Shown: piece after piece, positions 237-27,035 of the stretch | How positions within the stretch are numbered: position 1 is the first letter of the stretch | Layout of the letters: each line of letters begins with the position of its first letter | Source: a phage | Strand: one strand, 5' to 3' | Sequence record: OZ335962.1 | DNA length: 64,000 nucleotides | Made by a program: the position numbers and the translations under genes | Notes under the pieces: generated by a model | Told to the model about the DNA's origin: nothing | The model's database searches: none | The model's input: the letters and a program-made list of their open reading frames with translations, nothing else

Positions 237-893
237 ATGGCAGCACCTAGAATATCATTTTCGCCCTCTGATATTCTGTTGGGTGTTCTAGATCGCTTGT
301 TCAAAGATAATGCTACCGGGAAAGTTCTTGCTTCCCGAGTAGCTGTCGTAATTCTTTTGTTTATAATGGCGATTGTTTGGTATAGGGGAGATAGTTTCTT
401 TGAGTACTATAAGCAATCAAAGTATGAAACATACAGCGAAATTATTGAAAAGGAAAGAAATGCACGCTTTGAATCTGTCGCCCTGGAACAACTCCAGATA
501 GTTCATATATCATCTGAGGCAGACTTTAGTGCGGTGTATTCTTTCCGCCCTAAAAACTTAAACTATTTTGTTGATATTATAGCATACGAAGGAAAACTAC
601 CTTCAACAATAAGTGAAAAATCACTTGGAGGATATCCTGTTGATAAAACTATGGATGAATATGCAGTTCATTTAAATGGACGTCATTATTATTCCAACTC
701 AAAATTTGCTTTTTTACCAACTAAAAAGCCTACTCCCGAAATAAATTACATGTACAGTTGTCCATATTTCAATTTGGATAATATCTATGCTGGAACAATA
801 ACCATGTACTGGTATAGAAATGATCATATAAGTAATGACCGCCTTGAATCAATATGTGCTCAGGCGGCCAGAATATTAGGAAGGGCTAAATAA
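237..893 (+). CDS. t: Holin T
   Basis: 218 aa, matches T4 holin T in length and sequence; strong SD AAGGAGG at 222-228. Confidence 0.9.
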   Translation: MAAPRISFSPSDILLGVLDRLFKDNATGKVLASRVAVVILLFIMAIVWYRGDSFFEYYKQSKYETYSEIIEKERNARFESVALEQLQIVHISSEADFSAVYSFRPKNLNYFVDIIAYEGKLPSTISEKSLGGYPVDKTMDEYAVHLNGRHYYSNSKFAFLPTKKPTPEINYMYSCPYFNLDNIYAGTITMYWYRNDHISNDRLESICAQAARILGRAK

Positions 894-2650: not shown

Positions 2651-2991
2651 TTAAACCATCCTTTAATACGCTGCCACAAAGTTTTCTGTCGAGCTTTGTT
2701 AACACCAATTGAGCGAATAACTGGTTGAGATTCCTGGAATTCTTTATAATCAGCAAGGTAAATTTCGTAAGCCGATTGAACAAAGGTACTAATCGCTGCC
2801 ATGAAGTTTTTACGTACACCGCCAGGAGCTACTCCGTTGGGTAATTCAGAATTTTCACGAATAATTAAATATAGCCCAGTTCTAACTTTAACAATAGTTC
2901 CAAGATAAGCTCCATGGTACCAGATGTCCCACCCCTCTTGAGTGGGTTCTGCACAACGACGAAGTTCATTAACAATTTCTAACTTGTTCAT
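2647..2991 (-). CDS. Hypothetical protein, 114 aa
   Basis: ORF with ATG and SD GAGGAA. Confidence 0.55.
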
Positions 2992-3001
2992 TATTTATTC
3001 C

Positions 3002-3637
3002 TCACAGTTCAGATGCTACGGTGATTACTGCTTCAATGTTTTCTGCCGAGCGTTTAATGTCAAGATACACATTGCCGTTTTTAGCGATTTTACATGACAT
3101 TCCAATATCAGTAAATTTCTGAATATGGTGTTCCATCATTTTGTATCCAAAAATTCGCATATTTCCATTGTTATTAATTTCAAAATTACGAATTCCGTGA
3201 GTGCGTTTTTCTAAAATAGCAAGATAGTTACTGCGGTAAGTTTCAACCTTTTTAAGAACAAATCCATTTTCATCTAAAAGTTTTAACATGAAGTCTTTAT
3301 CTTCTTCCATATCGGAAGTAATCTCGCGAGCTTTACGAGTTGCTCGTTTTTTCAGTAGTTCAGGAGCATTTTCCTGCGCGTATAAAGTTGCTGCATTTGA
3401 AATAATATCCTGAGCTTCGCCTGTAATGATTAATCCATCACCAGATTTCTCCACCAGGCCTTTTTTAATCAATACCCCAATATTACTATTAACTACTGCG
3501 TTACCTAAATCTGGATGCACCTCACGAACTTCTGCGGCTGTAATGAAATCTTTCTTAGCAATGGTAATTAAAATCGCAGCAGTTTTTTCATTCAGAACAT
3601 CGTTAGAAGCTTTGATGATGTAAGTTACTTTAGACAT
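3002..3637 (-). CDS. motA: Middle-transcription activator MotA
   Basis: 211 aa; matches T4 MotA in length, sequence and position. Confidence 0.9.
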   Translation of the reverse strand: MSKVTYIIKASNDVLNEKTAAILITIAKKDFITAAEVREVHPDLGNAVVNSNIGVLIKKGLVEKSGDGLIITGEAQDIISNAATLYAQENAPELLKKRATRKAREITSDMEEDKDFMLKLLDENGFVLKKVETYRSNYLAILEKRTHGIRNFEINNNGNMRIFGYKMMEHHIQKFTDIGMSCKIAKNGNVYLDIKRSAENIEAVITVASEL

Positions 3638-3742
3638 TTTAATCTCCGTTTCAGTTCATTTATTTGATAGGTCTATAGTATCATGTTTAAAGCAGAAGTA
3701 AACACTTTTTTGCACTCTTTTTCAAGAGCTCTAATAAAGTAC

Positions 3743-14507: not shown

Positions 14508-14879
14508 TCACTTAAATTTAATGGCTTGAAGGAGACTAATAATTCTCAAGCGACTTCTTTCATCTTTAACTGTAAATGAAAGAGGGTCACCAGATTTCAT
14601 AGTGATAGTGCATTCAAAATCAAAACCTTCGGGGACTTCTTCGAATAGGTCAAATTCTTCATCATATATTAGAACATTACTCTGAAAACTGTGAAGAATT
14701 TTTCCATCATTTCCAGATGCTGTACTAATCATTGTAACATTATTACCTTTCATATCTTCAACGATAAATTCGCTTGTAGATATTACGGCATTAATAGAAC
14801 CATTCCTATAAATAGCAGAAAATAGATATTTCTTTTCTTCACCTTCGCGAATGCGATATTTCTTACCGATTTTAAACAT
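14508..14879 (-). CDS. Hypothetical protein, 123 aa
   Basis: ORF with ATG. Confidence 0.5.
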   Translation of the reverse strand: MFKIGKKYRIREGEEKKYLFSAIYRNGSINAVISTSEFIVEDMKGNNVTMISTASGNDGKILHSFQSNVLIYDEEFDLFEEVPEGFDFECTITMKSGDPLSFTVKDERSRLRIISLLQAIKFK

Positions 14880-15060: not shown

Positions 15061-15474
15061 TTATTCCTTAAAGTGAGCTTTCAACATCTGATACAAAGAC
15101 CATGCCTGTTCATTATTTTCAATAGTAACGTTCATGATCGGGAATTTAGATGGATCAGTTATTGTTGCAGATTCTTCCTGCTCTTCAGCTGCCTGGTATG
15201 GATTTTCAACTTCATTAAAGAATTCAGCTTCATTCGATGAAAGCCAAATAAAATCTTCATCCAAAATATCTTTACCAGAAGATAGTACTAAATTTCCAGC
15301 AAATGACATAATTTTAATAGGACGCCCAAGAGCATCCACATCTAAAATTTTAAAAGGATGCATACCTAAACGGCGTGCATAGATTCCGTTATCAGTATGG
15401 TCTTTAATAAAATTTTCTTGAGCTTGTTTATTTTTAAATTGATACCATTTATTAACTTCAAATTTAATAGCCAT
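15061..15474 (-). CDS. Hypothetical protein, 137 aa
   Basis: ORF with ATG. Confidence 0.5.
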
Positions 15475-15689
15475 TAATAAATTTCCTTCCAGTAAGTTGT
15501 ACCGTCTTCAGTGATTTCACGAAATACACCGTAAATTGGTTGTTTATCCCCAACCTTTTCATACACATAAACCGAAGTCAAGTGAGTAAACTTAGCAGTG
15601 TGTTCCTTTTGAACTACTACCAAATCTGGATCGAATAACACATCTTCAAATTCGTCATTAGTGCAGTTCTGAACAATTTTACGTTTCAT
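15474..15689 (-). CDS. Hypothetical protein, 71 aa
   Basis: ORF with ATG; TAATG coupling. Confidence 0.5.
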
Positions 15690-17556: not shown

Positions 17557-18240
17557 TTATCGTTTTGTTGGAAGAGACAGAGGATCGCACTCTTCCTCTG
17601 ACGGAGCATCTTCAAGACCCATAGCATACCGCAAAGCATACTTCATCATCAGGATGTCTTTCGCACAGTCATGAATAGAATCATGTGCAACGAATCCATC
17701 TAAAGTTCCCTTTGGAAGAGGACATGTAGTCATATCACGAACAAGCAGAAGTGCTTCAATTCTGGTACGAATATCACGCTGATTCCAGAATTTACAAGGT
17801 TCTAACTTAAATGTGTCAAGTTCATTCTCAGAAACGCCGTTAAGACGTTGAATATCACGAATGAGATCGACTAAAATTGGAAAATCAAACGACATTCCAC
17901 GGCACCAGCCTTGAGATTTCCAAGGATCGATGTTATGTGCATTGATATAATCATTAAATTTTACAATACCATCGATGGTGCTTACATCTTCATCTGATGG
18001 TGCAATATTTTTTCGAGCTTCAGGAGACTGATTTTTCCACCATTCGATAGTGCTTTTAGTAAAAAGACGATGTCCTTTTTGACTTTTTAAATCAAACTTG
18101 ATTTTAATGCCGCGTGAAACTAATTCATCAAATGTTTCAACTACTTCTGGATTAGGATCAAAGGCAATAACAGCTAAGTCAATAACAGCTGCTTTTTCAC
18201 CGCTTCCCATTGTTTCAAAATCTATAATAAAATCAAACAT
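17557..18240 (-). CDS. dexA: Exonuclease A DexA (DnaQ-like 3-prime to 5-prime exonuclease)
   Basis: 227 aa; N-terminal MFDFIIDFETMG exo motif; length and position as T4 dexA. Confidence 0.8.
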   Translation of the reverse strand: MFDFIIDFETMGSGEKAAVIDLAVIAFDPNPEVVETFDELVSRGIKIKFDLKSQKGHRLFTKSTIEWWKNQSPEARKNIAPSDEDVSTIDGIVKFNDYINAHNIDPWKSQGWCRGMSFDFPILVDLIRDIQRLNGVSENELDTFKLEPCKFWNQRDIRTRIEALLLVRDMTTCPLPKGTLDGFVAHDSIHDCAKDILMMKYALRYAMGLEDAPSEEECDPLSLPTKR

Positions 18241-25147: not shown

Positions 25148-25180
25148 GTAATTCTCCTTTTATTTAAATTACATGACTAT

Positions 25181-25188
25181 TTATAATA
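25181..25188 (-). promoter_or_regulatory. T4 late promoter TATAAATA upstream of soc
   Basis: Minus-strand TATAAATA about 34 nt upstream of soc ATG. Confidence 0.55.
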
Positions 25189-25219: not shown

Positions 25220-25738
25220 TTAATAACCTCGGTCTTGACGAGCGAAGTTTTCGGCATTTTTTAGATAATAAAGTTTAAAGATTTCTTCAGCCGTAAGACC
25301 GAGACCTTGGAACATGTTCAGAACGAAATGAAGAATATCAATCATTTCGAATTTAATTTCCAACTGGTCTTGCGGAGACAAATCAGTAATTAGAGTTTCA
25401 CGGCGTTCACCGTGTTGAGCTTTCCAAGGCTTCCATACAGCGGATGCATCTTTTTCACCATTGCTCATACCACCAAGAGAAGTCAGAAGTTCGCGGAATT
25501 CATCATCAATATAATCTTTCTGATTACGCAACCAATCAACAACTTCGCCTGCGGTAGCCAAATCATCAGGATGACGGTTATATTCAGGTTTATCTTTAGC
25601 TAAACGAACCTGCAGAGATTTCTGCATATCAAGCATAACCTGCAGCGGGTCTTTTTCATCACCGAGAATATCCCAGTATTCATTTTGAGCTTTATCAGCG
25701 CCTTCGATCAGTTGTGAACATTCATTAAAGTAAGCCAT
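25220..25738 (-). CDS. 56: dCTP pyrophosphatase gp56 (MazG-like)
   Basis: 172 aa from ATG 25738 (SD AAAGGA); MAYFNECSQLIEGADKAQNEYWDILGDEKDPLQVMLDMQ... matches T4 gp56; track ORF has a spurious 31-codon extension. Confidence 0.9.
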   Translation of the reverse strand: MAYFNECSQLIEGADKAQNEYWDILGDEKDPLQVMLDMQKSLQVRLAKDKPEYNRHPDDLATAGEVVDWLRNQKDYIDDEFRELLTSLGGMSNGEKDASAVWKPWKAQHGERRETLITDLSPQDQLEIKFEMIDILHFVLNMFQGLGLTAEEIFKLYYLKNAENFARQDRGY

Positions 25739-25809
25739 TATTTTTCCTTTCAATTCATGGGTTAGTAGATTAATTATACAATAAATATATAAAGCAATAA
25801 GGAGGATAT

Positions 25810-26010
25810 ATGGTACAAAAATTAATGGCACTTGTAGATGCCATAAAAGGTAATAAAAGACGTATAGCTTTTACTATTTCTGCTATGGTAGGAATTTTAC
25901 TTTGGAATTTTGTTTTATCGCCAGTTGCTATTGCTCATGGTGTTAGTATTCCAGTAATTACTCTCGATACATTCGTAGATTTAGCATTTGCTTTAGTTGG
26001 GTTAATTTAA
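25810..26010 (+). CDS. Small membrane protein, 66 aa, plus strand
   Basis: ATG at 25810 four nt after SD GGAGG; hydrophobic segments; stop codon overlaps gene 61 stop. Confidence 0.45.
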   Translation: MVQKLMALVDAIKGNKRRIAFTISAMVGILLWNFVLSPVAIAHGVSIPVITLDTFVDLAFALVGLI

Positions 26011-27035
26011 ATCTTAGCATATTTAGATAGCCGCATTTTGGCCATCAACCCTTGGGCAATATTATTTTTCATATATTCCATAATTTGTTCAGGGGTTGCA
26101 CCTTCCTTTCTAATCATATCATTAACATCTTTTGATTTCCAGGGAGATTTGTCCCAAAACATAACCCTTTCTCCTGCATCAACCAATTTAGTCATTCGTT
26201 TAATAGTATCAGGGTGACGAGGTTCATTATCTAAAACCCATACACGTCTATCTTTAAATGGAACAATTTCTAGGTCTAATTGACCACCCGTAATAGCTAT
26301 ACCATTTTCAATAAAAAGTGAATCTATAGGTCCTTCTAGAACATATACATCACCATCTTTGACTCGTTCAACTCCATAAATTTTTGTTGCCTCAGGATAA
26401 GCTTTGATTGTGATATATTTTTGAGGAGCATCTTTCTTTAATGCACGCCCTTGAAAAGACTCAGCTTTTCCATTAGCATTATAAATTGGAATAACAAGAC
26501 GAGGCTCAGGTATTTCCTTTTTATATGTTCCTGGCGCTATACTATTAACTAATTTAGGCCATTCGGTTGTAAACCAAAGATATTTCCATTTATCCTTTGG
26601 AATACAACGAGCTTTTACATATTTTATAATTGGATGGTCTTCCGCCAGTTTATCTAATCTAATGCATGACGGAAGAGATTTAATTATTTTCTTCTCAGGC
26701 TGCTTAGGAAGTTCTTTAGGTTTTTCTACTGGACGACTTTTACCTTTTTCTTTTCTTATTTCAAAGATATACTCACGATATAAATCAGGTTCAAACTCCT
26801 TTAAATATATTCCGATTGGTGCATGATAGTTACAGTTATAACAATGAATATTTCCTTCATTATTATCACCATAATACCATCCACGGGCTTTATTTTGGTC
26901 GGTTTTTGAATCTCCACAAACAGGGCATCTAAACCGTAATTTAAAAGTTGAACTATTATTTACTTGTGCGAATTTAGGTAAATGAGCCAATGCACGGTAT
27001 GCAAACTCATTATCAATCCAAGGTATTGATGACAT
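26007..27035 (-). CDS. 61: DNA primase gp61
   Basis: 342 aa; zinc-ribbon CPVCGDS...CYNC; matches T4 primase. Confidence 0.95.
   Translation of the reverse strand: MSSIPWIDNEFAYRALAHLPKFAQVNNSSTFKLRFRCPVCGDSKTDQNKARGWYYGDNNEGNIHCYNCNYHAPIGIYLKEFEPDLYREYIFEIRKEKGKSRPVEKPKELPKQPEKKIIKSLPSCIRLDKLAEDHPIIKYVKARCIPKDKWKYLWFTTEWPKLVNSIAPGTYKKEIPEPRLVIPIYNANGKAESFQGRALKKDAPQKYITIKAYPEATKIYGVERVKDGDVYVLEGPIDSLFIENGIAITGGQLDLEIVPFKDRRVWVLDNEPRHPDTIKRMTKLVDAGERVMFWDKSPWKSKDVNDMIRKEGATPEQIMEYMKNNIAQGLMAKMRLSKYAKI

Follow-up and report, generated by a model that had tools for sequence, protein, structure and literature searches.

The gap between genes 56 and 61 of T4-like phages raises the question of whether the short reading frame that occupies it, on the strand opposite to both flanking genes, is a gene and, if so, what its product might do. 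We considered this question for a window of 64,000 nucleotides of phage DNA (sequence record OZ335962.1), which represents a T4-like phage of the genus Tequatrovirus with best DNA matches that are about 97% identical. A first-pass annotation of this DNA had described a plus-strand ORF of 66 amino acids with its ATG four nucleotides after GGAGG and a stop codon overlapping that of gene 61. Both parts of this description hold, with the two stop codons sharing a TTAA (26007-26010) so that the ORF and the primase gene meet end-on-end (Table 1). The Shine-Dalgarno 8-mer, TAAGGAGG, occurs only once in the 64-kb window, and an AGGAGG-type Shine-Dalgarno element is kept across the homologues of the ORF.

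Table 1. Features of the locus between genes 56 and 61, in coordinates of the 64,000-nucleotide window.
Feature	Position	Strand	Remarks
Gene 56 (dCTPase)	25220..25738	-	Divergent neighbor of the ORF
MotA-box middle-promoter pattern, TGCTTTA-N11-TATAAT, for gene 56	25773..25796	-	Overlaps the late motif on the opposite strand
T4 late-promoter-like motif, AATAAATA	25780..25787	+	22 nt before the ATG; positions -13 to -6; inferred start near 25793
Shine-Dalgarno element, TAAGGAGG	25798..25805	+	4 nt before the ATG; contains GGAGG 25801-25805
ORF, 66 aa plus stop	25810..26010	+	ATG at 25810, stop at 26008-26010; family RB32ORF030w / PHROG 2024
Residues 1-18: short amphipathic helix and basic cluster KGNKRR (five K/R)	25810..25863	+	Predicted cytoplasmic
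Residues 19-42: predicted transmembrane helix, signal anchor or possibly cleavable signal peptide	25864..25935	+	AlphaFold2, hydropathy, conservation
Residues 43-66: [HQY]-G-x3-P loop, acidic residue 53, short hydrophobic C-terminal helix	25936..26007	+	Predicted periplasmic
Gene 61 (DNA primase)	26007..27035	-	Convergent with the ORF

Plus-strand genes are as rare in this window as had been supposed, since only the holin gene t (237..893) and the 66-codon ORF look like genes on that strand, and the remaining plus-strand ORFs of at least 50 amino acids resemble low-complexity antisense frames. The length of the ORF is not significant by itself, because several spurious ORFs of 60-97 amino acids occur nearby. 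What lifts it above chance is the combination of its position in a non-coding gap, a perfect Shine-Dalgarno element and conservation across genera.

The first-pass annotation had proposed a genuine small membrane-protein gene at this site and had named conservation in related phages as a check on that proposal. In a tblastn search, 693 phage records contained a match to the peptide, about 500 of them at more than 80% identity and 190 at around 45-55%, and the ORF is present in seven genera of Tevenvirinae: Tequatrovirus, Mosigvirus, Gaprivervirus, Dhakavirus, Jiaodavirus, Moonvirus and Mosugukvirus. It lies tail-to-tail with primase gene 61, on the opposite strand, in Tequatrovirus, in Mosigvirus ZQ3, in Gaprivervirus VR7 and in a Yersinia phage, and the corresponding place in Dhakavirus JS98, Mosugukvirus PM2, Jiaodavirus KpV477 and Moonvirus Moon is taken by a divergent form with only 24-27% identity. 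Within Tequatrovirus the orthologues are 88-97% identical to the ORF product, with position and orientation unchanged. The start codon, the Shine-Dalgarno element and the length (62-69 amino acids) are kept across the seven genera. The product also matches the profile of PHROG 2024 over nearly its entire length (E = 8.8e-30; residues 2-66 against positions 1-65 of 65), and a broader profile gathers 120 family members, all of 41-73 amino acids and all from T4-like phage contigs, with those that carry names being nearly all hypothetical proteins. Two further loci are without it: in RB49 (Krischvirus) genes 56 and 61 abut and the ORF is absent, and in CC31 (Karamvirus) there is no plus-strand ORF at the locus and a minus-strand gene is found there instead. 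The ORF evolves faster than its neighbors, with 24% identity to the JS98 form compared with 63% for gp61.

We asked whether this conservation could belong to DNA rather than to protein, that is, whether a chance ORF might lie in conserved non-coding DNA such as a promoter or an origin. The idea has some appeal in a region that adjoins the gene 56 middle promoter and corresponds to the oriA area of T4, and in AT-rich DNA where spurious ORFs of this size are common. The pattern of substitution, however, is that of a protein-coding sequence. Pairwise dN/dS for the ORF ranges from 0.14 to 0.43, below 0.45 in every pair for which it could be computed, and the differences at codon positions 1, 2 and 3 (35/11/39 against VR7 and 30/12/40 against ZQ3) fall least often on position 2. 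In all six homologues checked, the +0 frame alone is open despite saturated synonymous divergence, and the alternative frames contain 2-10 stops on the plus strand and up to 9 on the minus strand. Together with the conserved start, Shine-Dalgarno element and length, the dN/dS values and the frame analysis effectively refute the chance-ORF explanation, which we regard as extremely improbable. Sequence comparison thus establishes the ORF as a bona fide gene of the Tevenvirinae under purifying selection, and the first-pass proposal is well supported on this point.

Second copies of the gene are seen at two loci. In VR7, a paralogue of the JS98 type lies directly 3' of the T4-type copy (about 2701-2967 (+) of the VR7 locus piece), and its C-terminus looks frameshifted. 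YenP8 carries a truncated copy of the ORF (2679-2807 (+) of the locus piece) beside a homing endonuclease, and a small CDS covering this truncated copy (2709..2810) is annotated as 'DNA packaging ATPase'. Given these second copies, some genomes appear to hold two divergent alleles in tandem.

The gene is already known in the sense that databases carry a hypothetical protein for it, and hundreds of relatives have it annotated under that label. In close relatives the orthologue appears as 'RB32ORF030w hypothetical protein', the name in VR7 is VR7ORF033w, and the label of PHROG 2024 is 'unknown function'. In T4 itself the ORF is found at 17738..17938 (+) of NC_000866.4, with 6 conservative differences from the window ORF; the 309 bp that separate dam from gene 61, in which it lies, carry no annotation in this reference record. 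The JS98 RefSeq record, NC_010105, is likewise without an annotation for the ORF, which is found there at 15343..15543 (+). Searches of the literature on T4 and its relatives found no paper that names or characterizes the ORF, and no published transcription-start, Ribo-seq, proteomic or functional evidence for it. Routine shotgun proteomics would be likely to overlook the product, of which tryptic digestion yields just LMALVDAIK and a hydrophobic peptide of 48 residues.

The surroundings of the gene vary on the gene 56 side. The first-pass annotation had placed dam and an origin near this site in T4, correctly, as in that phage genes 56 and 61 are separated by a region that includes dam and oriA. 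The phage analyzed here is without dam, for which tblastn gave no match anywhere in the window. The variable part of the locus is a slot between the ORF promoter and gene 56 (window positions 25739-25809), with the ORF remaining beside gene 61. The slot holds dam in T4 (2787-3738 of the locus piece), a homing endonuclease in JE01 (841-1491) and other genes in KpV477 and Moon. Given these different contents, and an empty slot in the window, we regard it as an insertion hot spot. A mosaic junction is also evident at the locus: gp56 (25220..25738, minus strand) is 91% identical to that of JS98 and only 74% identical to that of T4, and across the junction, on the 25810..27035 side, the ORF is 91% and gp61 98% identical to the T4 counterparts. 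The phage of the window also has a soc.2-type arrangement without segF.

When might such a gene be expressed? Early and middle T4 transcripts all have one polarity and only late transcripts run either way (PMC2988020), and the early and middle polarity corresponds to the minus strand in the window. The T4 late promoter is TATAAATA, of which the form with A at -13 is the commonest natural variant, found in 9 of 50 T4 late promoters (PMC2988020). The ORF is preceded at a short distance by an element of this class on its coding strand, and the identical AATAAATA variant precedes the holin gene t (211-218), 18 nt before its ATG. The more general motif WATAAATA occurs 6 times in the 64 kb, compared with an expectation of 24 +/- 5, and this four-fold depletion indicates that late-promoter motifs are avoided in a mostly early window. 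Three of the six copies precede t, soc (25178-25185, minus strand) and the ORF at 18-31 nt from the ATG, and the remaining three are not promoter-like in their placement. Among the ten lineages compared, nine have NATAAATA at 12-22 nt upstream of the ATG in differing flanks, and the Moon form carries only ATTAAATA upstream.

The ORF thus shares a TATAAATA-class motif and a strong Shine-Dalgarno element with t and soc, which are T4 late genes with gp55-type promoters. The first base of its motif differs between genera (A, G or C among the lineages); the first position of the late promoter is poorly conserved in related phages (PMC1524935). We infer that the ORF is probably transcribed late, from a gp55-type promoter, and the corresponding start in T4 would be expected near 17722. 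A perfect TATAAATA is also found at 14807-14814 (+), within a minus-strand coding region and with neither an ORF nor a Shine-Dalgarno element behind it; it could have arisen by chance or could serve as a late promoter for antisense RNA.

The late motif in the window falls inside the spacer of the minus-strand middle promoter of gene 56, a pattern that is the counterpart of the T4 gene 56/oriA promoter region. MotA-box patterns of this kind are enriched four-fold in the window, with 10 matches compared with 2.5 expected. The overlapping middle promoter of gene 56 and late promoter of the ORF could compete for the same DNA, and part of the conservation of the late motif could serve the gene 56 promoter on the other strand. 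In T4, where dam separates the two promoters, the late motif is nevertheless retained.

The convergent arrangement suggests another way in which a late transcript from this promoter might act. A search for a rho-independent terminator for the ORF on the plus strand found none, so that late transcription past the ORF would be expected to continue into gene 61 in antisense orientation. One could therefore propose that the chief function of the locus is that of a regulatory RNA, with the late transcript silencing gene 61 or colliding with its transcription, and with the small ORF in a secondary role such as shielding the 5' end from Rho. In favor of this proposal, all genera examined share the tail-to-tail arrangement of the ORF and gene 61, whereas the neighbor on the other side varies; the stop codons overlap with no plus-strand terminator pattern for several kb beyond, and in the Moon record a plus-strand terminator is annotated shortly beyond the 5' end of gene 61. 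An RNA-only role is insufficient, however, because it does not account for the purifying selection on the peptide itself (dN/dS of 0.14-0.43) or for the residues that stay invariant across forms only 24-27% identical. Nor is the abutment of the ORF and gene 61 obligatory, because a homing endonuclease lies between them in YenP8 and 206 bp lie between them in VR7. In addition, by late times the early and middle transcription of gene 61 has already ceased. Thus, we consider it unlikely that regulation of gene 61 is the chief function, although an antisense role and a protein role are compatible with each other.

Two hairpins were noted in the course of the terminator search. A stable plus-strand RNA hairpin (26046-26098; z = -3.1) lies just past the ORF stop, inside gene 61, and has no U-tract. 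A weak minus-strand terminator-like hairpin with a T-run (25844-25825) falls within the beginning of the ORF and, in the minus-strand direction, comes after gene 61 and before the gene 56 promoter; we do not rely on it, because it is kept in T4 and missing in VR7.

The protein encoded by the ORF is predicted to have one membrane-spanning segment. An AlphaFold2 model, which is of moderate confidence (mean pLDDT 75.6) and is based on a shallow alignment of 9 sequences, places helices at residues 2-12, 16-42 and 52-63. Hydropathy points to the long central helix as the membrane segment, and the Hessa sum is lowest at residues 19-42, where its value of about +0.7 kcal/mol is marginal. The best 19-residue Hessa sums are about 0 to +3.8 kcal/mol, and in several genera the segment has many Ala, Gly and Ser residues, or even an Asp. 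Five Lys and Arg residues precede the long helix and none follows it, a layout of charge and hydrophobicity that is well supported. From the five N-terminal basic residues, the positive-inside rule predicts a cytoplasmic N-terminus and a C-terminus outside the inner membrane.

The first-pass annotation had counted two hydrophobic segments in this protein, and only the first of these, the marginal transmembrane segment at residues 19-42, is clear. We considered the C-terminal tail as a second transmembrane segment and rejected it: the tail is acidic, with 1-2 acidic residues, and in several homologues its length is insufficient to cross a membrane, with 10-13 residues after the conserved acid in KpV477 and Moon. 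A single-pass protein is accordingly more likely than a two-pass one.

The distribution of conserved residues provides a further view of the protein. Among ten representatives chosen at below 60% identity, W32, N33, P38 and G44 never vary, nine carry A40 and nine carry P48, only A, S or T is seen at position 42, and residue 53, which sits in the C-terminal hydrophobic stretch, is always acidic. These positions define a well-supported family motif, W-N-[FYL]-x3-P-x-A-x-[AST]-[HQY]-G-[LIV]-x-[LIV]-P-x-[VM]-x-[LMF]-[ED], in which conservation is densest at the outer end of the helix and in the loop that follows. Because the conservation is concentrated at this boundary, the protein would be expected to act on a specific partner and not through general membrane damage.

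The same motif can be read in a different way, in which residues 1-42 act as a Sec signal peptide that is cleaved off, leaving a secreted, acidic-hydrophobic peptide of 24 residues, HGVSIPVITLDTFVDLAFALVGLI, as the active product. The -3/-1 rule of signal peptidase agrees with P(-5)-x-A(-3)-x-[A/S/T](-1), with [H/Q/Y]-G after it, in nine of the ten representatives, and the tenth departs from the pattern by an L at -3. The segment also has a basic n-region and a core of marginal hydrophobicity, and the strongest conservation is found around and after the putative cleavage site. Judged by the -3/-1 rule, cleavage after A42 with release of the 24-residue peptide is possible. A signal peptide of 42 residues with an h-region of 18 residues would be unusually long, however, and the invariant W32-N33 pair would lie inside the part that is supposedly discarded. 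We therefore view a secreted peptide as the active form of the protein as rather doubtful.

A small hydrophobic protein that is encoded behind the same arrangement of AATAAATA and strong Shine-Dalgarno element as holin gene t also invites comparison with lysis proteins. A holin, pinholin or antiholin-like protein would form or gate lesions in the membrane, and some homologue records do carry the automatic names 'Holin' or 'putative holin'. The weakly hydrophobic transmembrane segment, rich in Ala, Gly and Ser, is also reminiscent of signal-anchor-release (SAR) domains. Against this comparison, no holin family of Pfam or NCBIfam was matched, and the product is without the charged, hydrophilic C-terminus that is typical of holins, its C-terminus being hydrophobic and its Lys and Arg residues all N-terminal. 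These phages, moreover, already possess the holin T, the antiholins RI and RIII, and spanins, and no r-type locus is known to map at the ORF. On balance, a holin-like function for this protein is quite unlikely.

Homology searches do not favor any particular function. The ORF product gave no significant match in Pfam or NCBIfam and nothing significant against PDB sequence profiles, PADLOC defence models gave no match at an E of 1 or below, and a search for paralogues within the window found none (best E 0.65). Searched with a profile, 1.84 billion representative proteins yielded 7 matches, of which six are short proteins or fragments resembling the same family and the seventh is a 1255-amino-acid protein with a marginal score (E = 3.5e-4). 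A fold search of BFVD recovered the protein's own orthologue and two weak matches to 63-amino-acid phage proteins (25-27% identity), one of them from Enterobacter phage CIP9, with the rest being noise; holin-labelled proteins in BFVD other than the orthologue were at noise level (E above 5). At the level of sequence, then, no function is supported by homology.

There are nonetheless similarities of layout to better characterized proteins. The T4 antiholin RI is a small envelope protein made late, in which a signal-anchor-release domain at the N-terminus precedes a periplasmic effector part. The ORF product resembles it in combining a membrane segment of weak hydrophobicity near the N-terminus with a subsequent part predicted to face the periplasm, and in being predicted to be expressed late. 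The likeness is one of layout only. No sequence similarity between RI and the ORF product was found in the window or in the libraries searched, and the periplasmic part of the ORF product would comprise only about 24 residues, compared with about 70 in RI. No genetic link between the ORF and lysis inhibition is known. No classical r or lysis locus is known to map between dam and gene 61 in T4, which argues against a strong lysis phenotype. As a working analogy without homology, the small single-pass regulators MgrB and AcrZ of bacteria are also shorter than 70 amino acids and have one transmembrane helix. The W-N pair within the helix of the ORF product is of the polar or aromatic kind that drives helix-helix association, and in this respect too MgrB and AcrZ offer a comparison.

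These considerations lead us to favor an explanation, to which we assign a probability of roughly two in three, in which the ORF is a late-transcribed gene for an inner-membrane protein with its N-terminus inside and its C-terminus outside, which binds a partner and takes part in late envelope events. Transcription would occur only late, from the gp55-type promoter AATAAATA, and translation from the perfect Shine-Dalgarno element would then yield a 66-residue envelope protein. We infer a mode of action in which the basic N-terminus stays in the cytoplasm and residues 19-42 enter the inner membrane as a signal anchor, which may be cleaved after A42, so that the conserved 24-residue acidic-hydrophobic C-terminal part would face the periplasm. 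The invariant Trp-Asn pair and the P-x-A-x-[AST]-[HQY]-G-x3-P boundary would bind another membrane or periplasmic protein. As to the role of the protein, our best guess for the setting is lysis timing, lysis inhibition or the handling of superinfection. A more specific proposal, that this overlooked late gene supplies a periplasm-facing micro-protein or processed peptide for late envelope control, for example as a T/RI lysis-inhibition or superinfection partner, and that its transcript might also silence gene 61, seems improbable to us in that form.

T4 is among the best-annotated viruses, yet its reference record misses a conserved and apparently late micro-protein gene. Because the reference annotations of T4 and JS98 omit the ORF, knock-down libraries, proteomics databases and expression tables are blind to it. 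The addition of the ORF to these two annotations would be a small but real correction, and this is the main practical value of the finding. For now the product counts as another small hypothetical membrane protein of phages. If the protein does have a role in lysis timing, lysis inhibition or the handling of superinfection, it would be a new component in a classic system.
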